From Candidatus Levyibacteriota bacterium (lineage in GTDB: Bacteria > Patescibacteriota > Microgenomatia > Levybacterales > UBA12049), in NCBI GenBank assembly GCA_963790825.1, contig CAWBPM010000002.1, positions 295,159 to 359,158 on the forward strand: 64,000 nt of DNA, written 5' to 3'. The notes below the pieces were generated by a model. The model saw only the letters and a program-made list of their open reading frames with translations. It did no database searches and had not been told where the DNA came from. Below are positions 3,384 to 24,196 of the stretch, one piece after another (positions within the stretch are counted from its first letter, which is position 1; each line of letters starts with the position of its first letter). The translations under genes and the position numbers were made by a program.

Positions 3384-3992
3384 TTACAAGTTACCTGTTA
3401 AAAACGTCCTGGGATTTACCGGTATTCCATAGGCGTTGATCTGAAAATGTAAATGCGGACCTGTGGCGTTGCCTGTCTCTCCTTCATAGCCGATAATGGT
3501 ATTTGTGTCAACAGTTGTTCCAACCTTTGTTGTAACTGCCTCCATATGGCCGTACAAGCTCGTTACATGACTTCCGTTGTCAATAACGACATAATTCCCA
3601 TATCCCAGGCTATCTTCTCCCGCAAACGTCACAGTACCTTTAGCAAACGGGTGTATCGGATCTCCTTGAAGGCCTTGTGGGTTGGCAATATCAATACCGG
3701 TGTGGAGTATCTGGTATGGAGGGTCGGGTTGTCCAAATTCAAGCGTCACGATACCCGTTGCGGGCCACGCCATTGACTCAGTAAAATCTGAGGTTGTCCC
3801 ATCTAAATTATGGATCTCAACCGTGTTAGTCGTGAGGTTGAGTGTGACGAGTTTGTCAGAAACGACTTGGAATCCAAAATTTGTTAATACGACTATACCG
3901 ATAATGGGAAGGAGAAGAATAAAAATAAAAACACCGGCAACAATTTTAAATTCAAAGCGATTGGAAAAAAGAGCGAATGCAACATATGGCAT
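3384..3992 (-). CDS. M23 family metallopeptidase with N-terminal TM anchor (T4SS-associated cell-wall hydrolase candidate)
   Basis: GNYVVIDNGSHVTSLYGHM...GETGNATGPHLHFQI is the LytM/M23 signature. A TM helix lies near the N-terminus. Sits immediately downstream of VirB4. Confidence 0.75.
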   Translation of the reverse strand: MPYVAFALFSNRFEFKIVAGVFIFILLLPIIGIVVLTNFGFQVVSDKLVTLNLTTNTVEIHNLDGTTSDFTESMAWPATGIVTLEFGQPDPPYQILHTGIDIANPQGLQGDPIHPFAKGTVTFAGEDSLGYGNYVVIDNGSHVTSLYGHMEAVTTKVGTTVDTNTIIGYEGETGNATGPHLHFQINAYGIPVNPRTFLTGNL

Positions 3993-3998
3993 GGTGTT

Positions 3999-5864
3999 TT
4001 ATATGTATATCTCCTTCGGATCGGTAGTTAAAAGCGGATGTTCTTTCTCCGATGCTACGACTTTGACGGCTACGTGATTCTGATCGGCAATGATTAACGC
4101 TTCGCCCCGCTCACAGGTTAGGAGAAATTGTGATTCGTATTCACTCAAATGAAATTCCTGTGTGACCTGTTTAATTGTTGTAGTGTCCTGGCGCATGAGG
4201 ATACGAAGGGAAGACTGACTGGCAATGGCTCTCCCATAATCTTGTTTGAGGAAATCCTGTGCCTGTTGGGAAATAATGGTGACTCCCAGGTAATATTTCC
4301 GTGCTCGTCGGACTAATCCGGCAATAAATCTGGCTGATTCAACGTGTTCCAAAAGCATCCAACCTTCATCTATCACGAGCATACGTTTTTGTGGATGAGA
4401 TTTCACCTGTGACTCAACAAAATTAGCAATGACCACCATCATAATTTGCCTGAGAGATTCATGAAGATCTTTTATATTGAAAACGATAAGACGATTCTCA
4501 AGTTGTATATTTGTCTGTTCATCAAAAACTGTCGATAGTGATCCTTTGACAAACCGTTCCAATCTATTGCAAATATCTTTTTGCTTCATTGTTTTAAGAG
4601 TTTTATATAAGTCTTTGACTAATGGGAATTCCTGGTGTTTTGCATTCATTTTTTTCTTTCCATTCATTGTGAAGCCAAATTCTTTGTAGGTCAGAAGTAT
4701 TGCCTTATCCATTACCGCCCGCTCTTCGGGAGAGAGTCCTTCAACCATAAGGGAAATAATTTCGGTAAGATTCTGAATATGTTCAGATAAAACATTTTCA
4801 CCATTTTGTGTAATAGAAAAATCAAAAGGATTTATTTTCTCCTTACTGGTAGCGGATAGTTTAATATACGTTCCCCTTACAGATTTTGCCAGTTGTTTGT
4901 ATTCCCGCTCAGGATCAATAACAATCACCTTTGTCCCCTGCATGAGCTGTCTGAGGATTTCAACTTTTGTGGTGTAACTTTTACCGGATCCGGATTGAGC
5001 AAAGATAATGGCATTGGCATTATTGAGTGAAAACCTGTCGACAATAACCAGCGAGTTATTTGATTTGTTAATGCCATAGAGTATTCCTGCCTCCTGCACA
5101 AGTTCTGAAGAGACAAAAGGAAAGGTTAGTGCGCCGGAGGAGCTGTCTAGATTTCGCCTCTGAGAGAGCAGGTTTTCTCCCCTCGGGAGTACCGATTGTA
5201 ACCCTTCAATCTGCTGGTAGATTGCGGTTTTTATATAAAACAACCTGGTTGCCATAACCGTTTCTAAAATCTTGGTGATTTTATTAAGTTCCGATACAGA
5301 GTCGGCAGTAATAGTCATGTAAATGGAAAACTGAAACAGCTTTTCTTTTCCCCGTTGAATATTGTTTTTAAGCAGAATTGCCGAATCCAGGGGATCGGTA
5401 ATTTCAGAACCAACTAACCGTCCGTTTTTAATCATCGCCCGTTTTGTTGCTTCAAGCTCAGTTATTTTTCTGTTCAGTTTTGGCAGAGCAAGGAGTGGAT
5501 CAACTTTTTCAATATGATAGGAGATGTCGATGTTGTAGTTAAAGTTGATAAGCATACTAAGCCATCCCGTACCGGCAACATAGGGAAACCCGCTGATAAA
5601 CAGTGTACGGACAAACTTTTCTCCCATTGACAAGTAACTGCTATTTTCCATCAGTCCCGAGTACGAAATTAAATCAATCTGGTCCTGTTCGCCGAAATTA
5701 AACTGAAATGATTTTTTCAATAATTCTTTTTTCTTGTTTTTGTATTGCAACTTTTTTTGCAAGCGTTTCATTGTCCTTTTTAAATGAATTCGCTTTGCGT
5801 TTTGCAGCGGTTGTAATGAAATATCGGTTAGATTAAACATATGATGTTTTAAGCAGCATATCAA
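3999..5864 (-). CDS. virB4: VirB4/TrbE/CagE-family T4SS ATPase, C-terminal part of a split gene
   Basis: Walker A FAQSGSGKSYTTK and a Walker B-like MLVIDEGWMLL. The conserved N-domain stretch LFISGFPYVAGTGWLSMLINF is present. Overlaps the upstream ORF by 32 nt in another frame. Confidence 0.8.
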   Translation of the reverse strand: MICCLKHHMFNLTDISLQPLQNAKRIHLKRTMKRLQKKLQYKNKKKELLKKSFQFNFGEQDQIDLISYSGLMENSSYLSMGEKFVRTLFISGFPYVAGTGWLSMLINFNYNIDISYHIEKVDPLLALPKLNRKITELEATKRAMIKNGRLVGSEITDPLDSAILLKNNIQRGKEKLFQFSIYMTITADSVSELNKITKILETVMATRLFYIKTAIYQQIEGLQSVLPRGENLLSQRRNLDSSSGALTFPFVSSELVQEAGILYGINKSNNSLVIVDRFSLNNANAIIFAQSGSGKSYTTKVEILRQLMQGTKVIVIDPEREYKQLAKSVRGTYIKLSATSKEKINPFDFSITQNGENVLSEHIQNLTEIISLMVEGLSPEERAVMDKAILLTYKEFGFTMNGKKKMNAKHQEFPLVKDLYKTLKTMKQKDICNRLERFVKGSLSTVFDEQTNIQLENRLIVFNIKDLHESLRQIMMVVIANFVESQVKSHPQKRMLVIDEGWMLLEHVESARFIAGLVRRARKYYLGVTIISQQAQDFLKQDYGRAIASQSSLRILMRQDTTTIKQVTQEFHLSEYESQFLLTCERGEALIIADQNHVAVKVVASEKEHPLLTTDPKEIYI

Positions 5865-6450
5865 TTGTTTGTCCTTTTAACGCCTGTGTTTTTATTTGGT
5901 CGGGATTGTAAAAAGAATAAAACAAATCAAGAAGTTCCAGGCTTGTTAGCTGTCTTGCTTTCATACCGAGTTTCTCGATACCCTTGCTGACAATATCCCG
6001 TTCTAAATATAAATGCTCCTTAATTGTTGTAAAATCATTTTTTCCCGTGTTGTTAAAGGGAACAATAACGTAAAACCGGCGGGAAAGAATCTTGTTGCCG
6101 CGGACCATTTGTTTAATAAACGTACAATAAGTATCAATTTGCTCTCTGTATATTGCTTCTTTTTCCTCTGTTCCTTTGATTTGTATTTGCTGGGTGTAGG
6201 AATCAATATCCATTTCCCTGACCCTAATAAGGATTTGCAGAGAGGAAGGCAGAGAATTTAAAAAGTTCTGGAAGCTATCAATTATAACATCCTGTTCTTC
6301 CTCGGATTTTAATTCGAAGTTAATCGAAGAAGTTTCCAGAACCAGACGGTACTGGTTATTCGGTAATATCAGTATATTATCTTTTACTTCTTTAATCCGG
6401 ATTTGCCGGCGGGAGCCGACTTTCTTATTTGATTTGTTCAATGCCAACAT
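5833..6450 (-). CDS. Probable N-terminal segment of the VirB4-like ATPase (frameshift-separated) or a separate T4SS accessory protein
   Basis: 205-aa ORF ending inside the start of the VirB4 ORF (overlap 5833-5864, different frame). The combined length of ~815 aa matches full-length VirB4. Confidence 0.4.
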   Translation of the reverse strand: MLALNKSNKKVGSRRQIRIKEVKDNILILPNNQYRLVLETSSINFELKSEEEQDVIIDSFQNFLNSLPSSLQILIRVREMDIDSYTQQIQIKGTEEKEAIYREQIDTYCTFIKQMVRGNKILSRRFYVIVPFNNTGKNDFTTIKEHLYLERDIVSKGIEKLGMKARQLTSLELLDLFYSFYNPDQIKTQALKGQTIDMLLKTSYV

Positions 6451-6940
6451 TTAGCCCTCCTTTTTTGTTTGTTTTTATTGAGAATATATACTTAGGGCTG
6501 AGAATGAGCTGCTCCAAGCGGATAATATCAGAAAATACGATTTTTTTAAGGGAGATTTTTTCAACCTTTTTGTCTTTTGCCCTTTTAAGTAAGCGGAATT
6601 GCCTTTTCTCAGTTACCGGCAGATATATGTCCCGCCCGTACGCATCATTTTTGTTATACACATAATATTTCGGCCTGAGGTTATACCTAAGTAAAATACA
6701 AATCCAGCTTAGAACAACTTTCCCTTTTATTCTGAGAGCAAGGGTAAGACTGATAATCGCGGCAATGAGCGCGGCGGCAATTTTTACAATGCTTAGATGC
6801 AGCTTTGGCGGAAGGATGATAAATTCAACTGTTGACAGGAAAACCGGAATCATAAGCAAGATAATCTGTGTTAAATTGAGGCTTCCCGCAATCCTGTCCT
6901 CAACGGTTGTAATCTGCGCCGGAATAATTCTGGTTCTCAC
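6425..6940 (-). CDS. Small membrane protein, VirB3/TcpE-like T4SS component candidate
   Basis: 171 aa with two or three hydrophobic helices (IILLMIPVFLSTVEFIIL, IAAALIAAIISLTLAL). Position between VirB6-like and VirB4 matches VirB3 synteny. Confidence 0.3.
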   Translation of the reverse strand: MRTRIIPAQITTVEDRIAGSLNLTQIILLMIPVFLSTVEFIILPPKLHLSIVKIAAALIAAIISLTLALRIKGKVVLSWICILLRYNLRPKYYVYNKNDAYGRDIYLPVTEKRQFRLLKRAKDKKVEKISLKKIVFSDIIRLEQLILSPKYIFSIKTNKKGGLNVGIEQIK

Positions 6941-8235
6941 GCGTTAACGTACCTCCTTCGCCGTACTGCGTCATCGTCATCGGTTTGTTGTTGTTGTTGT
7001 TGCGACCCGGCATTTTCCCCCTTACGGCTTGTCATAGTATTAAGCATTTGTCCGCCCATATGGATTAAAGCACCCATTCGGGAGGTATAGAACATCATTT
7101 GGAATAACCAGGTGGGAATTTTAAGAAGGGTTAGAAATAGTCCTATGGCAATGACAATTGAGAGAAGTGAGCTGTCCGGATTATCGGGGATAGCCAGAAA
7201 GGAGGAAGCAAGTTGTATGACAACCACGTGCACAAAAATAATAAAGACGGTAACAAAGTATCCCTTAACCGCTGCCTCGGCAAAATCCGAGAACTTGGGG
7301 ACTGCCCACATGAGAAAGATAAAAGGAGAGAGGACGCCGGCCAGGACAACGAGAATAAGCCTGACAATATACATAAAAAGGAGGATAATTGCCACGATCA
7401 AAAAGATGATAAAAAAGATTAAAGTAATTATTGGTGTATGCCCGGTCAAAACACTCACAGGACTTATGGCATTGACCACCCATGCGTGGCTCAAACCCCC
7501 TGTTGTGTTAATCACCTCACTAACCAGTGCGTTGCAGGTGGTAATAACGTAGTCGCAAAGAAACAGGGAGACATTCGCGCCTAAAAATGCCAAACCGATA
7601 CGGGGAAGTAGGTGTTTAAGCTCTATCTCCTCAAAGCCAAAGGTTGAAGCCGACATAAAATGCAACCCTAAAAGAGCAACAACGAGAACAAATAACGAAT
7701 CAACAATTCCCAGGCTTACTGTCCAGAAGTGAAATACAACTGAGTTGCTAAGTAAACTTGGAGTTGTGGTTAGATAACCTATAATCGCATTCACAATTGG
7801 CTGTGTTGCGCTTTGCACTATGTTTTGCATCAGTCCTGTAATTGCGCTGATAAGAACCTGTGCAATGGCGCCCGTTGGACTTTGGGCTGCAATGGGAATC
7901 AAACTGGTTGCTAAGGAGGCAGCGGGTGAGACGGGGGCAATAAGGGCATTTTGCAAAAGAGAGACAACAACATTTGCCGAAAGAACAAGAGAAAGACCTA
8001 TGAGGGCATTTCTGATAGTTTTCCTGGCCTGCTCCAACGCTTCCGGATGGCCGGTTGAGGTGATGTATTGGTATCCTCCTTTAATTAAGAAGAGAATCGC
8101 TGATGCCGATGCTAAAAGAGTAAGAATCTGAAGGGTGTCACTTGTGTAGTTGGTAATGTCCGCTCCTGCCGCAAATACAGGCGGAACGACAAAAAGAAAG
8201 AGAGTAGCTCCATAAAGTAAGATCTTCTGCTTCAT
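6937..8235 (-). CDS. VirB6/TrbL-like polytopic membrane protein with an N-terminal pilin-like domain and a C-terminal polyQ/polyD tract
   Basis: 432 aa with more than six TM segments. Residues 1-110 (signal peptide plus two hydrophobic segments, GGYQYITSTGHPEALEQARKTIRNALIGLSLVL) are paralogous to the 113-aa pilin-like ORF upstream. C-terminus reads SQQQQQQTDDDD, encoded by a (ttg)6 repeat at 6985-7002. Confidence 0.45.
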   Translation of the reverse strand: MKQKILLYGATLFLFVVPPVFAAGADITNYTSDTLQILTLLASASAILFLIKGGYQYITSTGHPEALEQARKTIRNALIGLSLVLSANVVVSLLQNALIAPVSPAASLATSLIPIAAQSPTGAIAQVLISAITGLMQNIVQSATQPIVNAIIGYLTTTPSLLSNSVVFHFWTVSLGIVDSLFVLVVALLGLHFMSASTFGFEEIELKHLLPRIGLAFLGANVSLFLCDYVITTCNALVSEVINTTGGLSHAWVVNAISPVSVLTGHTPIITLIFFIIFLIVAIILLFMYIVRLILVVLAGVLSPFIFLMWAVPKFSDFAEAAVKGYFVTVFIIFVHVVVIQLASSFLAIPDNPDSSLLSIVIAIGLFLTLLKIPTWLFQMMFYTSRMGALIHMGGQMLNTMTSRKGENAGSQQQQQQTDDDDAVRRRRYVNA

Positions 8236-8247
8236 AACTTGTAATTC

Positions 8248-8589
8248 CTATTGACTTGCCTGCGCCGTACCGAATGCTGTCGTCGCAAGATCGGTTATAA
8301 TCGTTGATAATACAAACGCTCCCAAAACTATTGCCAGTCCGATTGCCGAGTAAAATATAGTTTTTTTGGACCGGTCTAACGATTCCGGATTACCGGATGA
8401 AGTGATATACCCCACTCCTCCCCAGACAAAAAAACCGGCTGCTACTAAACCTGCCAGTGTGACAAGAACCGAGATGATGCTTTGGATAAAGGTTTGAATC
8501 TTCGTAACGTCTGCTGAGGCGGCAAACGCCGGCGTCGCAGTTATAAGAGACGTAAGTACTAACGATGACAGAAAGATTAGTTTTCTCAT
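8248..8589 (-). CDS. VirB2/TrbC-like pilin candidate
   Basis: 113 aa with a signal peptide ending AFA-AS and two hydrophobic segments, the typical topology of conjugative pilins. Sits adjacent to the VirB6-like gene. Confidence 0.45.
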   Translation of the reverse strand: MRKLIFLSSLVLTSLITATPAFAASADVTKIQTFIQSIISVLVTLAGLVAAGFFVWGGVGYITSSGNPESLDRSKKTIFYSAIGLAIVLGAFVLSTIITDLATTAFGTAQASQ

Positions 8590-8860
8590 GTTCCTCCTTT
8601 CTTCTTAGGATTTTTCTTACAAAAAAGCTGCTCATGACGAGCAGCAGTAATTGAAAAGATTATACAGAAAAATATACGAAATGCAAGGGGATTTTTCATT
8701 ATTCGTTATAACCGGTCGTTTTTTTCTGATAAGATCAATAATCTAAAACGGAATATCCGCAGTCATATTTTCTTTTGTTGCAGAGTTTACTATAAAATGC
8801 TCTTACATTTATTTATAAAGGGTACTACTTTTTAAAAAGAGAGTTGAAATATTCTTAAAA

Positions 8861-11266
8861 GTGAACTACTCTAATAGGGGGTTAAGAATTTTACTGAGAT
8901 TTACAGTAGGAAATAAAATGAAAAGATATTTGCTTCAAAAATTGGCTCTTTTAGTGATCGGGTTTTTTATGTTCCCCTCTGCTTCTTTTGCTTATACAAC
9001 CAATATGAACGCCTCAGTTGTTTTAGGGCAAACAAGCTTTAGTACGAATTCTACAGGTACAACCTCCAGTACTCTTAACGGTCCTAGAAATCTTACTATT
9101 TGTAATGGTAAGTTAATTCTTGCTGATTTAACTAATTCTCGAGTACTTATTTGGAATTCTATACCAACACAGAACGGGCAAGCAGCAGATGTCGTAGTCG
9201 GACAACCTGACTTTACAAGTAACACGATAAATAATGGTGGTATTAGCGCTGCAACATTGAATAAGCCGTTAGCTGTCGGCTGCTTTGGTAACAAACTATT
9301 CATTGCCGATACAGAAAATAGTCGTGTTTTGATTTATAACTCGATTCCTACCTCAAATGGAGCCTCAGCAGATGTCGTAGTCGGACAACCTGATTTTTCT
9401 CATAACACTGTCAATAATGGCGGAATTGGAGCGAATACATTAAATAGACCACATGGAGTAACGTCGGATGGACAAAGATTATTTATTTTAGATGCCGATA
9501 ATCGACGACTACTCATATTCAATTCAATACCAACCACAAATAATGCATCGGCAGATACTGTGATAGGGCAGACAAATTTTACAAGTAATGGCATAAGTTG
9601 TTCGGCTAGCGGGTTTGATCATGAAGCACTCGGTGTATACGTATATGGAGGTAAAATTGTCGTTGCACAAACGTTTTTAACTAGCCTGGGCGCCTCTGGT
9701 CACAGAGTTTTAATTTTTAATAGCATTCCGACGAGCAACGGCGCTTCCGCTGATGTTGTCATTGGCCAGTCTAGTTTTACTGATTGTTCATCATATGCAG
9801 GCACTGCAGCGAATACCGTAGATAGGCCTTTTGGAGTCTTCGTAGATTCTAAAGGTAGACTCTATATTGGTGATAGAGGAAATCAAAGAGTTTTAGTTTT
9901 TAATACAATTCCCTCATCAAATAAAGCTTCCGCAGATTTGGTGATTGGTCAACCTAATTTTACTAGCAATAGTGTAAATCAAGGACAAGCTTCTCCTGGC
10001 GCAAATACTTTAAATGGTGCTGCTTATATTACGGGTACAGACACACAATTATTTATTACAGACAGTACGAACAATCGTGTCCTCATTTACAACGACATAA
10101 CGAGTAACCCATCAATGTCCCTCGGCAACAACATCTCTTCCTCACCTAATGGGAATAATAAATTGCGTTTCACCGGAAGTGCCTCTGTAGATTCTCCCTA
10201 CACCGTCAAAAGTGTCCAATATCAAATCAATGGGGGTGGTTGGAATAATGCAACACTGACAAACAGCAATGCACAAACAACCTCCTTTTACTTTGACTTC
10301 TCACCAACTGACAACAACTATTCTGGAGACGGGTATACCATCCAAGTACAAACGACAAGCAACAATCAGGATGTGAAGAGCAACGGCTTTTATTTCACCC
10401 CATTCAACTTGAATAGTCCAGGAAACAATGCATATACCACCAGTACCACACCCACTTTCTCTTTCTCCATCAACCAAGGGAGATTCACAGACCTCTCCAG
10501 TAACCTCGATCACTTCCAAGTGCAAGTACAAAAGATTAATGATGTCAATGGTAACCATTTGAGTAGTAGCTGGCAAACTTACATTGACAACATCCCCGTC
10601 AGTTTCCAGAATAATAAGAACAATTCACAGAATCTGCAACAAAACAGCAGCAATACATATGAAACGACTAAATTCCTTGCTACCTACAGTAGTGACAACA
10701 GCAACATCAGTGTTTATGCCAAACCAATTGACAGTACAGGCAACACCACTGGAAATACCTCATTTGACCAGGGTGGAACAGTCCTGTCTTCTGGAACTTA
10801 CCAATGGCAGGTAGTTGCTATTGATAAATCAGGACACCAACAAACAACAGGCAGTAATACCCTTCGAGTCAATAGTCTGATTACCAATACAACCGGAGCA
10901 ACAATTCACTTTCCCCTTTCTATTCTCTATCTTTCAACTCTTGGCAACGTGAATCTCTCAACGGATTATTCCCAAGGAATCAAATCAACCTATACTATCT
11001 ATAATACTGCACCAACCTTCTACGGGATTGCCTATGCAGGAGCAACAGTCACCCTTACTCTAACAGACAGTGTATGTGTCACATCGTCCTCAAGCACAAC
11101 ACTATGCACAAAAACCTATACTACAACTGCAAATCCTGATTCGAGATTTGGGATCAATATCCCAACGGGAGATTTAAATAGAAACAAAACGTACACTGTT
11201 AACATGAATGTGACACAGAACGGGAACTATAATGAACTGCCTGAGTTTTCCCTCAAAGTACTCTAA
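8861..11266 (+). CDS. Large secreted NHL-repeat (beta-propeller) protein with C-terminal Ig/fibronectin-like Ser/Thr/Asn-rich domains
   Basis: Signal peptide, then at least seven repeats of the form NSRVLI(W/Y)NSIPTxNGxxADVVVGQPDF(T/S)xN (NHL-type blades), then beta-rich low-complexity domains. Transcribed divergently from the T4SS operon. Confidence 0.7.
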   Translation: MNYSNRGLRILLRFTVGNKMKRYLLQKLALLVIGFFMFPSASFAYTTNMNASVVLGQTSFSTNSTGTTSSTLNGPRNLTICNGKLILADLTNSRVLIWNSIPTQNGQAADVVVGQPDFTSNTINNGGISAATLNKPLAVGCFGNKLFIADTENSRVLIYNSIPTSNGASADVVVGQPDFSHNTVNNGGIGANTLNRPHGVTSDGQRLFILDADNRRLLIFNSIPTTNNASADTVIGQTNFTSNGISCSASGFDHEALGVYVYGGKIVVAQTFLTSLGASGHRVLIFNSIPTSNGASADVVIGQSSFTDCSSYAGTAANTVDRPFGVFVDSKGRLYIGDRGNQRVLVFNTIPSSNKASADLVIGQPNFTSNSVNQGQASPGANTLNGAAYITGTDTQLFITDSTNNRVLIYNDITSNPSMSLGNNISSSPNGNNKLRFTGSASVDSPYTVKSVQYQINGGGWNNATLTNSNAQTTSFYFDFSPTDNNYSGDGYTIQVQTTSNNQDVKSNGFYFTPFNLNSPGNNAYTTSTTPTFSFSINQGRFTDLSSNLDHFQVQVQKINDVNGNHLSSSWQTYIDNIPVSFQNNKNNSQNLQQNSSNTYETTKFLATYSSDNSNISVYAKPIDSTGNTTGNTSFDQGGTVLSSGTYQWQVVAIDKSGHQQTTGSNTLRVNSLITNTTGATIHFPLSILYLSTLGNVNLSTDYSQGIKSTYTIYNTAPTFYGIAYAGATVTLTLTDSVCVTSSSSTTLCTKTYTTTANPDSRFGINIPTGDLNRNKTYTVNMNVTQNGNYNELPEFSLKVL

Positions 11267-11482
11267 GCTAGACTGGCTAACCTAACAGTCAAAATGGACG
11301 AATAAAGAAAATGTAATTACGGATGGATGTATCCGGAATGTCGAAATTTGCATCCGGACATTTTTGTCAGGGGAACCTTGGTAAAGTAATCCCTGAAATC
11401 AAACTGTCTACCGCTGTTTTCAATAAATTCATTGATTTCGTATTTAATTTCCTAACTGATATATAATAACTAACAGACAAAG

Positions 11483-12172
11483 ATGACAAAGGAGCTTTTA
11501 ACATCCCATCCCAGAAGGATCAATTTGGAAGAGGTTGATAAGTCACTGACTAGAGTAGTTGTGCACTGGAAAAGAATTGATAACGAGTTAGATAGTATGA
11601 AAATCGGTAGAAAAGAGCCTCCCTTTACTATGCAAGTGAAAGACCAGATGATATCAGGTTATGTTCATTTAGATGACTTACTTTCCCAAGGTGTAAGACC
11701 ATTTTCAGATGAAAGTATCTCTGAAATGCTTAAATTTAACAACAGGATTCATTATGGTACGGATACACAATTAATGACAGAATATGACTCTGCAATCTCA
11801 GCCAATGCAGAAAGATATTACAAACGAATTAATCCTATCAAGGACTGGTATGCAGCACATGAAGTCAAAGGGCATCATCCGTATGAATTGGCTGCTGAAA
11901 TATACGTAGCGATTTTAGGACGTCCACAGTTGTTTATAGAAGGAAATCACAGGGCAGGGACTTTAATAGCCGATTACATCCATGCTTTTTTCGGACATCC
12001 GATATTTGTGCTTACAGTGAGAAATGCATTAGACTTTTTTGAACCGGCTGGTAAAATAAAACATTTTTATAAAGCATCCGCTTGGCAGAAGCTAAACCCG
12101 CCAGAGTATAAAAAACGGTTCGGAAAGTTCTGGAGAGAGCATATTGACCATAGGTACTTGTTGCCAGAATAA
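11483..12172 (+). CDS. Fic/Doc-fold domain protein with a degenerate active-site motif
   Basis: QLFIEGNHRAGTLIADYI aligns to the Fic motif HPFxDGNGRxxRLL, but the catalytic His is replaced by Gln and the second Gly by His. Confidence 0.3.
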   Translation: MTKELLTSHPRRINLEEVDKSLTRVVVHWKRIDNELDSMKIGRKEPPFTMQVKDQMISGYVHLDDLLSQGVRPFSDESISEMLKFNNRIHYGTDTQLMTEYDSAISANAERYYKRINPIKDWYAAHEVKGHHPYELAAEIYVAILGRPQLFIEGNHRAGTLIADYIHAFFGHPIFVLTVRNALDFFEPAGKIKHFYKASAWQKLNPPEYKKRFGKFWREHIDHRYLLPE

Positions 12173-12222
12173 TATACTTGAATTTATTGAAAAACAAAGT
12201 ATAATGCGAAACGGAATCTTAT

Positions 12223-12489
12223 ATGAGCCAAGAAAGAAAATGCGGGCAGTGTAGTTTTTTTGATCCAATGCAGGTAGACAAAACAACACCCTTCGGCGCA
12301 AAAAATTTAGATAATGGTCAGATAGTCCGAAAGGGTGTATGCAGAGTCAATAAAGGATTGCGTTTCGGAATATTGGATGAAACAAGAGATTGCAGACAGC
12401 AACCACCTCAGGAGCATTTTATTGCAATAAATAGTCGGCAGAAGGTAAATTCCTGTCCCACAAATCCATCATTGTCTACCTCAAACTAA
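12223..12489 (+). CDS. Small Cys-containing hypothetical protein (possible zinc-ribbon)
   Basis: CGQC...GVCRV spacing. 88 aa. Weak support only. Confidence 0.25.
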   Translation: MSQERKCGQCSFFDPMQVDKTTPFGAKNLDNGQIVRKGVCRVNKGLRFGILDETRDCRQQPPQEHFIAINSRQKVNSCPTNPSLSTSN

Positions 12490-12518
12490 CATGTAATAGC
12501 AGAGACTAATCTGAATAA

Positions 12519-12911
12519 TTATCTTTTGAAATGTTTGCGTGATTTTCTTAACCCATCTGTACCGTGAGTGTATTTTATAACTCCACGAAGTTGTCTCTTA
12601 CCCGATTCTTTATCTCTACGGAATACTGGATACATCATACCGTTTTTATCAAGGTCTATTTCTTTTACGATTCTTTCTTCCCCAGCCGTGTTCGGTTTTC
12701 TGACTCTATAGTATTTCCCTTTTCCATCGGGAAGAACATATAGAATATGGCGAGTCCTACTATCCTCTCCGGGGAAAAGGTCACGCATGTCCAGATCCAT
12801 TACCTCACTTGAATAGTTTCCGGCTTTAAGTAATTCATTGACTGCTAAATCGTCTGCCTGTTTATCAACTGTATCAATTGGTTGCTTTGCCCAAAAAAGT
12901 TCAATTGTCAT
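12519..12911 (-). CDS. Hypothetical protein
   Basis: 130-aa ORF with good coding appearance. Basic C-terminus. No recognisable motif. Confidence 0.4.
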   Translation of the reverse strand: MTIELFWAKQPIDTVDKQADDLAVNELLKAGNYSSEVMDLDMRDLFPGEDSRTRHILYVLPDGKGKYYRVRKPNTAGEERIVKEIDLDKNGMMYPVFRRDKESGKRQLRGVIKYTHGTDGLRKSRKHFKR

Positions 12912-13210
12912 GCCTGAGAGTATATCACATAACTTTAAATTACTAATTTATAACAAGTGTAGTTTACTACTTGATTTATTTTTTATTGAGTACTATCTTT
13001 ATTAACAAGACTTAAGAAAGTAATACTTTATCTTAGGTTGTTTGGTACAGATTGAACTTGACAGTCAATCTCTGCCTAAAAATCCCCGCATGTTTTAGAC
13101 AAAGCTCTTAAGTAAACAGAATATTATAGATTCTAAAAAGGTTTCGGGGCAGCCGGTATTATTTAGCTATACAAAGAATAGCATTAAGAATCCTAATATT
13201 TTCTAGTTTA

Positions 13211-13612
13211 TTAATTAATTTCTTGAAATAGACAAGTTTCTCCGTTGGCAAGACCAAGTATCCCGACATGAATAAAAAATTGTTTCCAATTATTTCCTAA
13301 GGCAATTCCTAAGTTTTCTTCTCCCTTGAATTTATCACAGCGGTAAGTTTTTATTTCGCTATTATACGAAATAACAAGCTTATAATCGTGATTATATTTA
13401 TTTAAATAACTTAAAGTTTGTATATCTCCGTCTCTTTTGTAAGTTGTTAAATCTGGTTCATACACTACTGACCCCATTTCTCTTTTTCCTTCCTGGTTTA
13501 TTCTGTACATTGCAACGAAAACATTGTAGGAAAATACGTTTAGTTCCGGTCTGTCTTCTATAGCCAAGGGTCTTGGTATAAAAGAATATAGGGAACCATT
13601 TTTTATATCCAT
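13211..13612 (-). CDS. Hypothetical protein, tandem paralog A (immunity-protein-like family)
   Basis: 133 aa. About 40% identical to the adjacent 13651-14073 product. Shared motifs ERPELNVF, YDPDL(T/S)TYK, DYKL(V/I)IS(Y/F)N and WK(Q/R)FF(I/L)HVG(I/L)LG(L/F)A(N/K)GET. Confidence 0.5.
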   Translation of the reverse strand: MDIKNGSLYSFIPRPLAIEDRPELNVFSYNVFVAMYRINQEGKREMGSVVYEPDLTTYKRDGDIQTLSYLNKYNHDYKLVISYNSEIKTYRCDKFKGEENLGIALGNNWKQFFIHVGILGLANGETCLFQEIN

Positions 13613-13650
13613 AATATTTCATCCCCCTCCACCTTAAAGATTTAAGACCT

Positions 13651-14073
13651 TTAGTTTGTTTGTTTAATTTCATCAAACAAATAGGTTTCTCCTTTTGCAA
13701 AACCCAGTAACCCGACATGTAGAAAAAATCGTTTCCAATCATTCTCCCCGTCAGCACAGCCTACAATTTTATCCTTATTGTATTTAGCGCAACTGTAAGT
13801 ATTCTTAACGGCATTAAAAGAAATAATAAGTTTATAGTCCTGATTGAAAATATTTTTATAACTTAAACTTTTAATATCACCGTTATCTTTATAAGTAGAT
13901 AAGTCGGGATCGTAAAAGACTGAACACACAACCATTTTTCCTTCCTCATTTAATCCGTGAGATGAAACAAATACATTAAAAGGGAAAACATTAAGCTCAG
14001 GTCTTTCTTTTATCTCTAAACGGGTTGGCAAAAAAACAAACAAAGAATCTTTATCGATACTTATCATACCCAC
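13651..14073 (-). CDS. Hypothetical protein, tandem paralog B
   Basis: See 13211-13612. AT-rich pair. Confidence 0.5.
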   Translation of the reverse strand: MGMISIDKDSLFVFLPTRLEIKERPELNVFPFNVFVSSHGLNEEGKMVVCSVFYDPDLSTYKDNGDIKSLSYKNIFNQDYKLIISFNAVKNTYSCAKYNKDKIVGCADGENDWKRFFLHVGLLGFAKGETYLFDEIKQTN

Positions 14074-14445
14074 CTCCTTTCCAACAAAAAACCTCTCCTG
14101 AAAGAGAGGTATAATACAAAAAAATTGTTTACCAAATTTTCTTGGTCAAATCCGTCCCTTTCCAAGGGCTGGGTTTGGCACCGCTTAATAATTACCGGTT
14201 GCCGGGTGGGTCACTGAGCCAGAACTCTCGCCACCGCTCTTGATTAATTGTTAAGCCTATTAAATAACTTTTTAAAGGCTTTGTCAATAATTCAATACTA
14301 AGGAGTTGTTTAGGCTCTTCTAGGCAAGAGTCAAGCATTCTTTATTCTCAGTCAGTTAGTTGAACTCGCGGAATCGGTAAATGTCCAAAACAGCGAGACT
14401 AATTTTAATGCTTTTTGTAAAGCTTTCCCTTCTCCTTGTCCCAAA

Positions 14446-14476
14446 TAAAGCCCTTTTTAGCCGCGTGGACAATTCT
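14446..14476. repeat. ~31-nt direct repeat flanking the abrB-doc module (copy 1)
   Basis: taaagccctttttagccgcgtggacaattct matches acaaagccatatttagccacgtggacaatctt at 15214-15246. Confidence 0.5.
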
Positions 14477-14499
14477 TTGTGTCCAATACAAAGAGAATA

Positions 14500-14892
14500 T
14501 TAGTTAATTCTTCTTGAGTTATTCATAATCCAATTACATATCTCCTCTATACCTATCTTTTTCGTTATAATTTCCAGAATGAATTTTTCTAATTCATTTT
14601 GAGATACCGTCAACTCAAACCCATTTTGTGCCAAAAAAATAATCATACTCACTGTTCCTGTACGCTTATTACCATCTATAAATGCATGGTTATTAACTAG
14701 CGAATATAGTAAGGCTGAAGCTTTTTCGAAAACAGAAGGATATAAATCTAGACCTGAGAAGGTTGTTTGAGGTCTAAATACTGCAGATTCAATTAAGGCT
14801 AGATCCCTTATTCCATGTGAACCACCATATCTATCAATTTGGTCCTCATGGATTAGAATAATTTGCTCAAGTGTTAAGTAAACAATATCCAC
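14500..14892 (-). CDS. doc: Doc (death-on-curing) family toxin, Fic-fold kinase
   Basis: Canonical Doc motif HAFIDGNKRTG. 130 aa. Immediately downstream of an AbrB-type antitoxin gene. Confidence 0.85.
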   Translation of the reverse strand: MDIVYLTLEQIILIHEDQIDRYGGSHGIRDLALIESAVFRPQTTFSGLDLYPSVFEKASALLYSLVNNHAFIDGNKRTGTVSMIIFLAQNGFELTVSQNELEKFILEIITKKIGIEEICNWIMNNSRRIN

Positions 14893-14897
14893 ATTTT

Positions 14898-15146
14898 CTA
14901 CTTTAGGGCAAGTTTTCTTAATGCATCCCCGTAGTGTTCGTTAACCTTTTTAAGTAAATCCAGAAATTCAGGAGTTAAAGAAGAACGTACTTGCTTCTCC
15001 CCCTTTTTACGAATAACCAATGATTTTGTTTGCGGATCTGTTTCGATAATAACTTGAGTTCCTGTTTCAAAACCGGTTTGCTCTAATAGCAGTTTTGGAA
15101 TAATAACTCCAGTTGAATTTCCAACTTGAATAATTTTTTGCTCCAT
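14898..15146 (-). CDS. AbrB/MazE/SpoVT-type antitoxin (Phd-equivalent partner of Doc)
   Basis: VGNSTGVIIPK swapped-hairpin signature. 82 aa. 5-nt gap to doc. Confidence 0.75.
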   Translation of the reverse strand: MEQKIIQVGNSTGVIIPKLLLEQTGFETGTQVIIETDPQTKSLVIRKKGEKQVRSSLTPEFLDLLKKVNEHYGDALRKLALK

Positions 15147-15147
15147 A

Positions 15148-15184
15148 GTTATAACATGTTATAACATATTTGGATACTTGTCAA
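15148..15184 (-). promoter_or_regulatory. Putative abrB-doc promoter and operator (two abutting palindromic GTTATAAC boxes overlapping the -10)
   Basis: gttataacatgttataac at 15148-15165, two bases from the start codon. TTGACA on the minus strand at 15179-15184, 15-17 nt upstream of TATAAC. Confidence 0.4.
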
Positions 15185-15213
15185 GAACCAGTATTGTAGC
15201 CCGACTTGTCATA

Positions 15214-15246
15214 AACAAAGCCATATTTAGCCACGTGGACAATCTT
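15214..15246. repeat. ~31-nt direct repeat flanking the abrB-doc module (copy 2)
   Basis: See 14446-14476. Confidence 0.5.
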
Positions 15247-15303
15247 CATGTTCAAAACGGAGAAGGGGATATAGATTCTAAAAAGGTTTCGGGGCAGCCG
15301 GTA

Positions 15304-15474
15304 TTATTTTCTTCTTCCTCTACCGCCGATATGACCGGCTTTCCGGGCTTCCTCAGAGGTAAATTCATGCGCTCTGCCAAGTCTGTGTGCTTCCTTACCA
15401 CCGCTTCGGGCTATTCGGCGCTGCCTGTCTTTATCCATTGAGCCAAAACCCCTCCGTTTAGTATTATTAGTCAT
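15304..15474 (-). CDS. KGG-repeat general stress protein (YciG-like)
   Basis: MTNNTKRRGFGSMDKDRQRRIARSGGKEAH...GHIGGRGRRK matches the KGG stress-induced family. The ORF-track start at 15525 is probably too far upstream. The 3-prime end overlaps the 38-nt repeat at 15272-15309. Confidence 0.55.
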   Translation of the reverse strand: MTNNTKRRGFGSMDKDRQRRIARSGGKEAHRLGRAHEFTSEEARKAGHIGGRGRRK

Positions 15475-15563
15475 AACTCTCACTATAAAGTTATCACGAA
15501 AAAAGTGCAAGTCCAAATATTCCAAACATGAATCATGACTGATCGCAGGGTAATTTAATACTA

Positions 15564-15603
15564 GGAGACCCTTCGTCTCCTCTGCGCAAGGGTCAAGATG
15601 AAC
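15564..15603. repeat. Inter-cassette element E1 (GC hairpin GGAGAC-N5-GTCTCC plus box GCAAGGGTCAAGATGAAC)
   Basis: Member of a mosaic family with copies at 14312-14340, 16372-16411, 17057-17110, 18358-18385, 18501-18536, 19251-19299 and 20056-20091. Confidence 0.6.
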
Positions 15604-15660
15604 TTAAGCTATCCACGAATGAATAAACTGTTACTTTAAATATTTACTCTAGGAGTATAA

Positions 15661-20212: not shown

Positions 20213-20524
20213 GTGAATAAACAAATGATGCTACTTACTAAACAATTGACACAGAGACTACCAAAGCTATATGAGCAGGAAAACAATACTGATCCGATGG
20301 TTATCTGTAAGTTCTTTTTACCGATGACCAAATGGACTTGGTACGCCATAGAATTTGACGGAAAAGATACGTTTTTTGGCTACGTTGTCGGAGATTATCC
20401 GGAGCTTGGTTACTTTACTCTGTCAGAGCTAAAAGATATTGAGGGCCCATACGGGCTAAAGGTTGAGCGGGATATGTATTTCGACCCTCAACCGCTCTCA
20501 AAGATACAAGCGGGGGAAAGATAA
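20213..20524 (+). CDS. DUF2958-family protein (commonly carried on conjugative elements)
   Basis: 103 aa. KFFLPMTKWTWYAIEFDGKDTFFGYVVGDYPELGYFTLSEL resembles the DUF2958 family seen on plasmids and ICEs (from memory, not a search). Confidence 0.5.
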   Translation: MNKQMMLLTKQLTQRLPKLYEQENNTDPMVICKFFLPMTKWTWYAIEFDGKDTFFGYVVGDYPELGYFTLSELKDIEGPYGLKVERDMYFDPQPLSKIQAGER

Positions 20525-20581
20525 AGAAAAGTCTCTGCCGCCGGAACTGCCACCGGCGGCAGATCCTGCCCGCCTACCCAG

Positions 20582-21382
20582 TTATTCTACTTTTTCCCAA
20601 ACATCAGGGGTTTTAGCATTAAGTATTCTCTCATTCCAGGATAAATATAGAGGGAATGGTTCATCAAATTGTTTTTCAAATAGTGCTTTTGCAAAGTAAT
20701 ACAGGTGTTTCTTTAACTTTTCTCTTGGGCAAATAAATAAAACTGCGGGGAACGCTTGCCCGTTTGCGTTGTCCTCCCAATTACCTCCCTCAACATATTG
20801 CATGTATGTTAATATCCGTGAACGAAGTATTCCGGCAGAAGCATAGTCTCTGAATAATTCAAGGAAATATCTTCTGGTTTTCTCTTTTGTTTTTACTGAT
20901 ATATAAGCACTTGGCAGGGGAGTAGGAAAATACTCATATTGCAGCAATTGGCTTTCAGTAAAAAAACGGATCTCTTCATCTTTTTTCTTCTTTGCTAAAA
21001 AGAAAAGATAAACATCTGCTAAGTCTAGACAGTAAGAAATAAAACTTTCTGTCCGACTCTTTTCTTTGTACACTTTACCCAGTGCTTCAACGTCGCAGTC
21101 CTTTTCCTGTTTTAGGATTTGTATTCCTTTAGTACCCAGAAAATAGACAGCCGGCTTTGTCCGGTTTTTAAATGAATCAGGCAGATAATATCTGTGAATA
21201 TACTTATTATCTTTTAAGTCTTTAAGCCAGAGTTGTATTCTTTTGGGGTTTTTATGATTGAATAATATTTGCAGTTGGTTAGTATTTAGGAATCTGAATT
21301 TATATATATATTTTAATATTTGTTTTTCTTTGCCGGTTATTTTAACTTCTGTTTTGTTCTCTGTTTTTATTATTTTTTTCAT
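20582..21382 (-). CDS. Replication-relaxation (Replic_Relax, PF13814-like) family wHTH protein
   Basis: N-terminal EKQILKYIYKFRFLNTNQLQILF matches the wHTH start typical of Replic_Relax proteins. Lies immediately downstream of the VirD4-like gene, as in Gram-positive conjugative elements. Confidence 0.45.
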   Translation of the reverse strand: MKKIIKTENKTEVKITGKEKQILKYIYKFRFLNTNQLQILFNHKNPKRIQLWLKDLKDNKYIHRYYLPDSFKNRTKPAVYFLGTKGIQILKQEKDCDVEALGKVYKEKSRTESFISYCLDLADVYLFFLAKKKKDEEIRFFTESQLLQYEYFPTPLPSAYISVKTKEKTRRYFLELFRDYASAGILRSRILTYMQYVEGGNWEDNANGQAFPAVLFICPREKLKKHLYYFAKALFEKQFDEPFPLYLSWNERILNAKTPDVWEKVE

Positions 21383-21490
21383 GCTGGGTTTATATATTTA
21401 TGCCTCTTATATTTATATAAGATATAATAGGAAGAACTTTTTTGTAATTTAGCTTCATTTTAAGCATATTTTTGTAGGTACTCGCACCTA

Positions 21491-24196
21491 CTATTTTATC
21501 TGCTTCGTATCATCGGGAAGTGACCCTGTTATTTTATTTTTTGTCTCCGTAGTTTCTTTCTGTCTTGCTGCTTGCTGCTCTTTATTGACCGGTTTTTTCA
21601 GGTAGACAATTGCCCAGTTATTTCTCGAAGATGCAATGAGTTTCTCCATCTTTTTACTATCTCTTTTGACGGGCATATAGATTGTCTCACCGGAAAAAGG
21701 TTCTTCGGATTCTATGGCTGAAATTTTAATATAGAATCTGTAACGGGGAAGACTCATTATTTCGCCCTTTACTAAGTAGGGCGCAAACTGGTTAAGCATT
21801 AAATCTTCATCAATATAATTGCCGGACCGGAATGAGATAACTGTGGTAACGTTTGCCAGGATAATATTGGTAACATCCCTGTCTTTTTGCTGGGAGGTTG
21901 ACTGCTCGGCAATAATTAAAGGCATCCTGTACTTTCTGCCCTCTGTTATCATTTTTGTAAATGACTGGGTTGCAAAATTTTGGAATTCGTCAACATATAC
22001 ATAAAATGTTTTCCTCTTGCTCTCCGGTATATATGCTCTTTTTAATGCAGCTTGCTGGAGTTTGGTCATGATTGTTGTTCCCATGAGCCGTGAGGAGTCT
22101 TCACCTAATTTTTGTGAGAAATTACAAATGAGAATTTTACCGCCGTTTATAATTTCATCAAAATTAATAGTGGATTTCTCCTGTTCTAAAATTCTTTTAG
22201 CAGTAGGAGAGCGGAGAAACCTTCCAACCTTGGCTGTAATCCCCTGAGTCATTTTTACTATCTGATAATCTCCGGCTTTGCCGAATTCATATTTCCAGAA
22301 ATCTACTAAATCCTCATCCGTCAGTTTTGACACAACCTGTTTGCGAAAGGTAGGATTAGTCATGATTTTATTGATGGTAAATAATGTTGCGCCCGGTACA
22401 GTAAACGCTGTGTAAATAGTATTTCTTAAAATATATTCAATTCTGTGAGCATTAGTACTCTCATCTTTTGAAAATACTTTTCTGAAAAGCGACACTACAC
22501 CTTCTGCAACTACCTCTTTTTCCAGCTCCGCTTCGTCTTCATCGAGTCCGGGTGTCAACTCCATGACGTTTATTCCGATCGGATACTTTAAGTCTATCGG
22601 GTTAATATATATGAGATCGTCTTTCCGGCTTGTCGGAATAGAAGCCACTAAATCTTCTGCTACATCTCCATGCGGATCAATAAATGCTAAACCGCGGCCT
22701 TCTTCAATATCATGTTTTGCCATGGAAAACATTAAGGTAGTTTTACCTGAACCGGTTCGGCCTAAAATATACATATGCGTTTGCCGCTCTTCTTCGGTTA
22801 ATCCGATCGGCGTTGTTACTCCCGCATAATTATTTTCTCCAAAAACAGTATCCAGCTCCGTACCGTTTTTTAGTGTTATTGGGGCGGGTAATTCTTTTGA
22901 ATGTGCTTTTACAATGTTTTCCGTTTGCGTAACATACTTAAAAGGAAAATGATATAGGTCTGCTATCTCAGACGCGGAATATAATGAGGAACTTGCATTG
23001 TTAATTAAAGATAACATTCGTTTTCGAAACACAAATAGTTGTACCCGATCCGAGACATATGGAATTCCATATGTTTTGAAGAAGGACTGATATTTAGGAA
23101 CGTTATACATAGCAAGGGAGGAATGAAAACCTTTAACCCTCTGTGCAACTTCAGACTTTTCCTTCATAACAACTAGTAACCTGATTGATCCTTCAAACAA
23201 CTCCTGATCAATTTTTGTTTTGATTGACTGGATCACTTCCTGCTCAAAGCTACTTAGTATCCTAGCCGGCCGAAGGTGCTGCATTTGTATAACTTGCTGA
23301 TACTGGTATTGCCCGGAAATATGTATCGACTGTGTGTTTGAATGCATCAGCTCAGTTATTGCCCACTGCAGATTATTTCCGATTGCCAATATCATTTTAA
23401 GTAATACTTTTAGAAGGAATAACAATATTTTTACAACTAAAGGTGCTCGGGGTTTACTTAAATACCTTAGTATATCTTCATTGTTGAGGATCATCTGAGA
23501 AAGAATATCCGCTTCTTTGATTTTGGTTCCGGAAACTACTACTTGCAAAGAGATTAATTCTCCGGGTTTTAACTGCGTCATCATACCGGTGATATACGCA
23601 ACCGGATCATGTTCCTGCAGAGTGGATTGTTTTTGCAGAGGAAAAGCAAAATGTTTTCTTAATTGAAACCCGGCAACTTTTATATGCAATTTATTATTAG
23701 TTTTATCAACAGTGGGAATATATTCACTAGTTGTTTTCACCAGGACATGGGGAAGGTAGGAGAGAATCTCCCGTTTTATGTTCTCTTTTTCTTCCGGTGT
23801 TGTCCTGACAATGAAACGGATTCCCAGCTCTCTGCTTGAAACAATTTCGAAAGAAAGAATCGTTTTCCTGCCCAGTAATTTATCTGTAAACGAATCCCGC
23901 TTTGATAAGCCGTGTATCATTGAAAAAAATTCCTGCGTGGTATATGCAGACTTTTCGCTTATTGTCGGAGGGGTAATTTCAAGCAGAACCGATTCTTCAT
24001 TCATTAGTTTTCTGAAATTGAAATACCAGCGGGCAATTAGTATTACCAGCACACATACGACAAGAAAAAGAATAAAAGGAAAGGATGAGAAAGGAGAGTG
24101 ATGAGCAAAGTTAATAAACTCATCTTTTAAATGAGGAAGAGAGGCAGTTAACCGGCTAAGTATATATCCAGCTTCCCAATGATGCCAGTCATTCAT
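21491..24196 (-). CDS. virD4: Type IV coupling protein (VirD4/TraG/TraD family) with a long N-terminal membrane-anchored extension
   Basis: Walker A ILGRTGSGKTTLMF, Walker B FYVYVDEFQNFAT and an N-terminal TM helix. 901 aa. Confidence 0.8.
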   Translation of the reverse strand: MNDWHHWEAGYILSRLTASLPHLKDEFINFAHHSPFSSFPFILFLVVCVLVILIARWYFNFRKLMNEESVLLEITPPTISEKSAYTTQEFFSMIHGLSKRDSFTDKLLGRKTILSFEIVSSRELGIRFIVRTTPEEKENIKREILSYLPHVLVKTTSEYIPTVDKTNNKLHIKVAGFQLRKHFAFPLQKQSTLQEHDPVAYITGMMTQLKPGELISLQVVVSGTKIKEADILSQMILNNEDILRYLSKPRAPLVVKILLFLLKVLLKMILAIGNNLQWAITELMHSNTQSIHISGQYQYQQVIQMQHLRPARILSSFEQEVIQSIKTKIDQELFEGSIRLLVVMKEKSEVAQRVKGFHSSLAMYNVPKYQSFFKTYGIPYVSDRVQLFVFRKRMLSLINNASSSLYSASEIADLYHFPFKYVTQTENIVKAHSKELPAPITLKNGTELDTVFGENNYAGVTTPIGLTEEERQTHMYILGRTGSGKTTLMFSMAKHDIEEGRGLAFIDPHGDVAEDLVASIPTSRKDDLIYINPIDLKYPIGINVMELTPGLDEDEAELEKEVVAEGVVSLFRKVFSKDESTNAHRIEYILRNTIYTAFTVPGATLFTINKIMTNPTFRKQVVSKLTDEDLVDFWKYEFGKAGDYQIVKMTQGITAKVGRFLRSPTAKRILEQEKSTINFDEIINGGKILICNFSQKLGEDSSRLMGTTIMTKLQQAALKRAYIPESKRKTFYVYVDEFQNFATQSFTKMITEGRKYRMPLIIAEQSTSQQKDRDVTNIILANVTTVISFRSGNYIDEDLMLNQFAPYLVKGEIMSLPRYRFYIKISAIESEEPFSGETIYMPVKRDSKKMEKLIASSRNNWAIVYLKKPVNKEQQAARQKETTETKNKITGSLPDDTKQIK

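Follow-up and report, generated by a model that had tools for sequence, protein, structure and literature searches.

The NHL gene and its product

We analyzed a 64,000-nucleotide stretch of a Candidatus Levyibacteriota genome (GenBank assembly GCA_963790825.1, contig CAWBPM010000002.1; the whole stretch is termed the window, and coordinates count from its first letter), concentrating on a gene for a large secreted protein that is transcribed divergently from a type IV secretion system (T4SS) operon. The product of this gene, hereafter the NHL gene, combines a signal peptide, a beta-propeller of NHL repeats and a series of immunoglobulin (Ig)-like domains, and the initial annotation of this DNA had proposed it as an adhesin or receptor-binding protein partnering the secretion apparatus. 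The gene and its parts are as follows.

8918..11266, + strand, stop included: coding sequence of the NHL-propeller/Ig-like protein, 782 aa (open reading frame (ORF), identical public protein P0001, N-terminal alignment, AGGA box)
8918..8992, + strand: signal peptide, aa 1-25, MKRYLLQKLALLVIGFFMFPSASFA, with predicted cleavage before YTTN (sole hydrophobic segment; helix 2-17 at low predicted local distance difference test score (pLDDT); pattern kept in homologues)
8993..10111, + strand: six-bladed NHL beta-propeller, aa 26-398 (Pfam, six repeats, AlphaFold model, Foldseek and PDB profile matches)
10112..11263, + strand: three tandem Ig/FN3-like beta-sandwich domains, aa ~399-500, 505-655 and 660-782 (two models, Foldseek)
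8590..8917, no strand: intergenic region between the divergent NHL and pilin genes, 328 bp (sequence)

The plus-strand ORF reported initially is real: the ORF listing shows 8861..11266 open throughout, with no interruption. Its start is probably ATG 8918, which has an AGGA Shine-Dalgarno-like box ~7 nt upstream, yields a product beginning with a typical signal peptide (MKRYLLQKLALLVIGFFMFPSASFA followed by YTTN), aligns at the N-terminus with 15 full-length homologues, and agrees with public annotation, in which the identical protein P0001 has 782 aa. The GTG at 8861 was weighed as a start and is unlikely; it adds 19 non-conserved residues, and the Shine-Dalgarno box, the signal peptide, the homologue alignment and the annotation all favor ATG 8918. 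With this start, the product is likely 782 rather than 801 aa long, and the intergenic region (8590-8917) spans 328 rather than 270 bp.

The signal peptide is the sole hydrophobic window of the whole protein. It follows the n-h-c pattern (positive n-region, hydrophobic h-region, small-x-small site), and the SFA/Y and 'AYTTNM' junction is kept in homologues. In line with the secreted protein first proposed, these features suggest Sec export and signal-peptide cleavage. The protein contains neither an LPXTG motif nor a C-terminal hydrophobic segment, ending in ...PEFSLKVL, and Pfam and hydrophobicity analysis revealed no recognizable anchor or S-layer homology (SLH)-like domain. The mature protein is acidic, with an isoelectric point (pI) of 5.75.

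A predicted six-bladed propeller on an Ig-like stalk

The N-terminal half of the mature protein scores 58.9 bits against Pfam NHL (PF01436; cut-off 20, E 3.3e-16), above the gathering score. Exactly six copies of the motif R[VL][LV][IV][WFY]N are present, 61-66 aa apart, within six ~61-aa repeats that carry NxRVLIxNSIPTxNxAxADVVxGQxxFTS. An AlphaFold2 model built with 18 homologues (mean pLDDT 86, with the propeller mostly >90) folds residues ~30-395 into 24 strands forming six four-stranded blades, and a Foldseek search of the PDB superposes this closed propeller on the NHL domains of Thin, TRIM71 and TRIM2 with template modeling (TM) scores of 0.80-0.85, normalized to the target. A sequence profile from alignment A1 likewise matches TRIM71, the designed Pizza propellers and the PknD sensor domain in the PDB. 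The repeats thus model as the beta-propeller that had been anticipated, with six blades and not the seven or more counted at first.

The NHL profile match and the predicted six-bladed fold are shared with the TRIM71, Thin and Brat NHL domains and with the PknD sensor of M. tuberculosis (PDB 1RWI), the latter being likewise a bacterial extracellular NHL propeller. Known NHL propellers have a repeat period of ~42-44 aa, whereas that of the window protein is ~61 aa, the long period being accounted for by a 20-residue A-B loop, 'DFTSxxxNQGGxxxANTL'. The window protein also differs from them in its highly conserved inter-blade loop; strand D and the D-to-A loop 'NSIPTxNxAxAD' are the best-conserved parts of every blade, and variation is greatest in the B strands and C-D loops. 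In the homologue alignment all invariant columns fall in the repeat-scaffold motif, with no additional catalytic-looking invariant residue. In the window protein the propeller is joined to three Ig-like domains, in PknD to a kinase and in the TRIM proteins to a TRIM module.

The C-terminal half agrees with the beta-rich Asn/Ser/Thr domains first described: it is beta-rich, with Asn, Ser and Thr making up 41% of its residues. A separate model of residues 394-782 (pLDDT 86.5) and the full-length model agree on three beta-sandwiches over 399-782, the last of which contains a Cys pair (C720/C730) that is nearly invariant in homologues. This half has no Pfam or NCBIfam match, and for the whole protein these databases returned NHL only, plus one spurious sub-threshold match, and no T4SS family (VirB1-11, Prg/Trs, TraN/TraO adhesins). 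Foldseek matches of the C-terminal part are all generic, comprising the BIg domains of SiiE, contactin FN3 arrays and, weakly, the Ig-like domains of PrgB. The best match (E ~4e-10) is to Salmonella SiiE, a representative of the tandem-BIg/FN3 adhesins, with which the C-terminal 384 aa share consecutive beta-sandwiches; the likeness is one of generic fold only (TM 0.2-0.3 over the array), and in contrast to SiiE the window protein has just three domains, no RTX/type I secretion signal and no detectable sequence homology (no Pfam Big).

The protein family

Judged from sequence searches, the window protein is a member of a small, well-defined two-module family that forms part of a very large set of similar propellers. 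Relatives of the propeller gave more than 6,800 scored matches in the Candidate Phyla Radiation (CPR), Omnitrophota, Bdellovibrionota and other groups, with varied C-termini (Big, FlgD_Ig, PG-binding, fn3) and with two to four paralogues per genome in several genomes. The C-terminal module is rare: of 1.84 billion representatives searched, 139 clusters carry it at E<=1e-3, and it nearly always begins around residue 400 in proteins 740-870 aa long; these numbers come from an exhaustive search of representatives, used in place of a word-indexed protein search that gave six matches and missed known homologues. Among PLSDB plasmids, the only matches of the NHL protein were relatives with a propeller alone, 32-37% identical and located on megaplasmids, several of them beside hypF, and the annotated features beneath the matches, as distinct from the flanks beyond, held no T4SS link. 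For one homologue, P0093, the source gives the automatically assigned name 'sugar lactone lactonase YvrE'.

Approximately half of the full-length homologues (P0053, P0061, P0078, P0080, P0084, P0094, P0103 and P0115 in alignment A1) end in a Pro/Thr-rich linker and a terminal KKRCxWFxCW. From its sequence, this tail may represent a C-terminal signal, so far undescribed, that sorts or anchors CPR surface proteins; no NCBIfam model matched it in P0094 and P0115. In locus L009, from a Woesebacteria metagenome-assembled genome (MAG), the NHL homologue is preceded (6589-9949) by a PQQ-type propeller and a right-handed beta-helix protein, both probably secreted, and by an HlyD/FtsX exporter pair, which suggests a surface-protein gene cluster. 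Another homologue, P0125 in locus L087 (3664-6183), is split over three reading frames, which points to a pseudogene or to an assembly error.

The neighboring secretion system

The divergent arrangement of the NHL gene and the T4SS operon holds, as the minus-strand operon begins with a VirB2/TrbC-type pilin gene. The operon and, on the far side of the NHL gene, a relaxase and coupling-protein module comprise the following.

3384..8589, - strand: T4SS operon (Pfam; gene order the same in loci L009 and L090-L093)
8248-8589, - strand: VirB2/TrbC-like pilin, first gene of the operon (Pfam)
6937-8235, - strand: fusion of a pilin domain and TrbL/VirB6 (Pfam)
6425-6940, - strand: PrgI/VirB3 (Pfam)
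5833-6450, - strand: TraC-like ORF (Pfam)
3999-5864, - strand: VirB4 (Pfam)
3384-3992, - strand: M23 peptidase (Pfam)
20213-20524, + strand: DUF2958 (Pfam)
20582-21382, - strand: Replic_Relax/MOB_C-type relaxase (Pfam)
21491-24196, - strand: VirD4-type coupling protein (Pfam; NCBIfam TraD/CedD)

The VirD4/relaxase/DUF2958 module (20213..24196) is the other border of a variable segment (~8590-20212) that contains the NHL gene, two downstream ORFs, an S-adenosylmethionine (SAM) riboswitch with two small genes, a Fic/Doc gene and other small ORFs.

The T4SS of Patescibacteria is related to MPF_FATA, and the MPF_FATA systems of monoderms depend on surface adhesins (PMC12102498). In the one genetically tractable CPR/Patescibacteria species, the T4SS is essential for epibiotic growth (PMC12102498). 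The clusters in a survey of patescibacterial T4SSs (Quinonero-Coronel et al. 2025; PMC12102498) have the content of the window operon, namely a pair of VirB2-like pilins, VirB6, PrgI/VirB3, a TrsD/TraC-like ORF, VirB4, and an M23 peptidase replacing VirB1. Replic_Relax represents the MOB_C relaxase class (PMC5357655), and the window has the arrangement, seen in a minority of surveyed genomes (PMC12102498), in which a MOB_C relaxase adjoins the type IV coupling protein. PrgB-like adhesins were not detected in that survey, which found no T4SS-associated adhesin of Patescibacteria (PMC12102498); its text, as available, does not mention NHL proteins near virB4 and has no NHL or PF01436 entry.

Linkage of NHL proteins to T4SS loci

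We assessed the linkage in both directions. The forward test covered 13 loci with the full two-module architecture, the window included, many of them with flanks of <10 kb. Ten of these 13 have no T4SS-related gene in the available flank. Several family members sit among genes unrelated to the T4SS: P0046 has HU, RNase Y, RecA and ribosomal genes on one side and a SASA/fn3 protein on the other, P0055 lies between uvrA and transglutaminase/uvrC, P0116 neighbors a luciferase-like gene and a TSP_3 protein, and P0094 has a serine recombinase, an M23 peptidase and SNase nearby. The frameshifted copy P0125 (L087) is likewise without a T4SS-related gene in its available flank, and loci L008, L010, L011, L013 and L016 gave no match to any T4SS protein of the window. 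Among 80 propeller loci of reference genomes, tblastn with the VirB4, VirD4, VirB6, VirB3 and pilin of the window returned nothing for 79, even at E<=1, and L009 was the only one with a VirB4 or VirD4 match at this threshold. Setting the window aside, two of 12 loci are linked; under a null in which ~5-7% of a 0.75-1 Mb genome lies within 10 kb of T4SS-related genes, the rough binomial P for two or more is ~0.2, which is not significant.

The reverse test used four of the closest T4SS loci (L090-L093), reached via VirB4 homologues and contigs, whose VirB4 is 78-83% identical to that of the window; a single-protein VirB4 query of metagenome contigs gave one 1-kb locus without context. None of the four loci examined holds an NHL homologue. 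L091 is compact, with a serine recombinase, VirD4, Replic_Relax and DUF2958 followed 278 bp on by the pilin, and compared with it the window has ~11.6 kb extra between pilin and DUF2958 (8590-20212). Because DUF2958 lies directly next to the pilin in L091, the 11.6 kb of the window represent an insertion. In L090 and L093 the pilin is preceded by metal-resistance-type genes.

The T4SS linkage of the NHL gene is therefore not conserved, and the NHL protein is not a dedicated, conserved T4SS component. The co-occurrence of NHL-repeat proteins with T4SS loci that the initial annotation had proposed to look for is absent from 79 of the 80 propeller loci and from all four closest T4SS loci, and the proposed partnership with the secretion apparatus is not supported, since the gene occurs in relatives outside any T4SS neighborhood: ten family loci, some in housekeeping contexts, have no T4SS-related gene in the available flank.

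The intergenic region and the putative pilin promoter

Within the region between the two divergent genes, one element stands out on the pilin side.

8618..8684, - strand: pilin-operon promoter-like TTGCAT-16-TATAAT, then the leader hairpin GCTGCTCGTCATGAGCAGC and a T-run (conserved in L090 and L093)

The promoter-like element, the GC-rich hairpin with its T-run and a strong Shine-Dalgarno sequence all lie within ~100 bp of the pilin ATG. This leader module is kept in L090 and L093 (~7150-7250 in each) though the upstream neighbors are unrelated, and the consensus over the three loci reads TTGCAT/TTGCAA-16/17-TATAAT/TATAC, hairpin GCTGCTC...GAGCAGC, T-run, Shine-Dalgarno sequence and ATG. From its sequence, the hairpin resembles an intrinsic terminator, an attenuator or a 5' stabilizer placed ahead of the T4SS operon. 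Promoter-like sites in 8590-8917 show no excess over shuffled sequence, no conserved operator-like repeat stands out in the intergenic region, and the remaining ~230 bp contain nothing notable. What had been described as a 270-bp shared divergent control region is a 328-bp interval in which the pilin module is conserved independently of its neighbor and promoter-like sites do not rise above shuffles.

Interpretation and alternatives

Taken together, these data make it probable that the NHL gene is cargo of the variable segment of a T4SS island and that its product is exported and binds a ligand, with the propeller as head and the Ig-like domains as stalk. The protein would be an extracellular product of a Microgenomatia (CPR/Patescibacteria) bacterium, exported by Sec with cleavage of its signal peptide. 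Its six-bladed propeller would serve as the ligand-binding head and its three Ig/FN3-like domains as the stalk, and it would bind a surface or environmental ligand as a non-catalytic adhesin or binding protein; we infer both the binding function and the absence of catalysis. Its site beside the pilin gene would have arisen by insertion into the variable cargo segment between the pilin-to-VirB4 operon and the VirD4/MOB_C/DUF2958 module. Of what was first proposed, the secreted propeller/Ig-like architecture is supported; it is typical of binding or adhesion proteins and suggests an adhesin or receptor-binding role. The T4SS partnership is not supported.

Several observations weigh against this reading. 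The C-terminal linker and KKRCxWFxCW tail are absent from the window protein, which may or may not stay on the cell. Both linkage samples are small, the T4SS sample comprising six islands. T4SS-related genes are present within 10 kb, in the available flank, in three of the 13 family loci (the window, L009 and L086), and large surface proteins occur in other islands: L092 has a 1015-aa LamG/beta-helix/fn3/LysM protein in the slot upstream of the pilin, and L086 has a 1311-aa fn3/CarboxypepD_reg protein between its Replic_Relax/VirD4-fragment module and the NHL homologue. These surface proteins keep open a loose functional association with the T4SS.

In the strongest alternative, the NHL protein is an optional, element-encoded surface adhesin of the T4SS island, functionally analogous to PrgB of pCF10, that aids the T4SS and its VirD4 and MOB_C relaxase in contacting a recipient or host cell and is exchangeable with other surface proteins in the slot. 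It deserves attention because large surface proteins of other kinds recur at or close to this slot elsewhere (the 1015-aa protein of L092 in the same slot, the 1311-aa protein of L086 just after the same module). In its favor, the NHL gene is immediately divergent from the pilin gene, monoderm MPF_FATA systems need surface adhesins (PMC12102498), and with no PrgB-like adhesin in the patescibacterial survey the adhesin role is unfilled (PMC12102498). Family members also lie near T4SS-related genes in two other loci. In L009, where VirB4 is 70% and the NHL homologue 41% identical to that of the window, the homologue lies 4.4 kb past the M23/AbiEii end of the T4SS operon, convergent with it and on the opposite side from that in the window; in L086, the homologue comes after a Replic_Relax gene and a short ORF with a match to the C-terminal portion of the window VirD4, and the contig ends right after the homologue. 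In all three linked cases, however, the position and orientation of the NHL gene differ, two of 12 independent loci is within chance on the rough estimate above, most family members have core-gene contexts, and the regulatory module of the pilin is autonomous. Moreover, the NHL gene is missing from four of the five pilin-upstream regions of close relatives, two of which lack any surface protein. On balance we regard this alternative as unlikely.

The comparison with PrgB, the aggregation substance of the E. faecalis MPF_FATA plasmid pCF10, illustrates both sides. Both are surface proteins with an Ig-like stalk encoded beside a monoderm-type T4SS, and PrgB (8BEG) appears among the Foldseek matches, weakly, at ranks 35 and 43. 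The window protein, in contrast, has no sequence similarity to PrgB, no PrgB-type polymer-binding adhesin domain and no LPXTG anchor, and its gene lies outside the T4SS operon and is not a conserved companion of it. MPF_FATA systems also lack a VirB2-like pilin, whereas the window system has one.

A broader form of the same idea is that the conjugation-type T4SS islands of Microgenomatia have a variable 'adhesin slot' just upstream of the pilin, filled by unrelated large secreted proteins such as the NHL/Ig protein and those of L092 and L086. In L086 the corresponding position holds the fn3/CarboxypepD_reg and NHL proteins, and the contig ends before any pilin gene. We consider such a slot doubtful; if it existed, its exchangeable proteins would be the missing adhesin of patescibacterial T4SSs and would set host or partner specificity.

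Still less probable is a structural or S-layer-associated protein of the cell envelope with no specific ligand, for which the Asn/Ser/Thr-rich, acidic mature form, the multi-copy nature of the family in several CPR genomes and the possible anchoring tail in about half of the homologues could be cited; the window protein has no recognizable anchor or SLH-like domain, and in length and architecture it matches binding proteins. Many six-bladed propellers are hydrolases or lyases, and P0093 bears its lactonase name, yet a secreted enzyme with a catalytic propeller of the SMP-30/gluconolactonase, virginiamycin B lyase or peptidyl-hydroxyglycine lyase type, tethered by its Ig-like domains, is the least probable of these alternatives, as no Pfam, NCBIfam or PDB sequence match to any of these enzymes was found (only NHL, TRIM, Pizza and PknD), the best structural matches are non-catalytic NHL domains, and the invariant residues appear to be those of the repeated scaffold motif alone.

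Host recognition and attachment in CPR/Patescibacteria are an open question, for which a conserved NHL adhesin beside the T4SS would have been a good candidate. The product of the NHL gene, probably carried as cargo, is instead one of many exported NHL-propeller proteins and looks like an ordinary surface-binding protein of an ultrasmall (CPR) bacterium, not that conserved adhesin. What remains useful is a clearly defined family of roughly 100 clusters (a six-bladed NHL head with a specific three-domain stalk) with a confident model, and a region from relaxase and coupling protein to pilin that is a cargo hotspot, sometimes with large surface proteins.

Other features of the T4SS island

The T4SS island (1905-24196) contains a VirB4 with 75-83% identity to members of more than 100 clusters from differently named Microgenomates, and one MAG (GCA_027459745.1) has two copies. 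Serine recombinases flank the island in L090 and L091, VirD4 and the Replic_Relax (MOB_C) relaxase lie side by side, and toxin-antitoxin genes (AbiEii/AbiEi, Fic/Doc, BrnT) and phospholipase D (PLD)-like nucleases accompany it; no recombinase turned up among the window ORFs scanned. On these sequence features the island looks horizontally mobile. The N-terminal T4SS_pilin domain of VirB6/TrbL is 38% identical to the stand-alone pilin, and the pair is kept in L009 and L090-L093.

About 1.2 kb past VirD4, a tRNA-like 3' fragment (TAGCTCTCTGGTTCGAATCCC) occurs at 25370-25397 on the + strand; it was not called by ARAGORN and may be an att-site remnant. A tRNA-Arg lies at 29836-29909. Neither a direct repeat nor a full tRNA matching the fragment was present in the window or 10 kb further left.

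The variable segment contains two further sets of genes.

11483..12489, + strand: two ORFs 3' of the NHL gene, 229 aa and 88 aa (no family matches)
14500-14892, - strand: bona fide Fic/Doc protein (Pfam E 3e-20), 2.3 kb beyond the 229-aa ORF

The two ORFs downstream of the NHL gene are possibly co-transcribed with it. The 229-aa ORF (11483-12172, + strand) contains a degenerate Fic-like motif, QLFIEGNHRAGT, in which His is replaced by Gln, and against the PDB it gave sub-threshold FICD matches only (E ~0.3-0.4). Searches of the small neighboring ORFs with PHROGs, NCBIfam and lenient Pfam settings gave nothing usable. A SAM riboswitch (RF00162; 14145-14249, - strand) scores 49.7 bits against a gathering score of 44.4 and lies directly upstream of genes for two paralogous small proteins (13651-14073 and 13211-13612, both - strand) that have no Pfam, NCBIfam or PHROGs match; a pair of small proteins inside a T4SS island is an unusual regulon for a SAM riboswitch.

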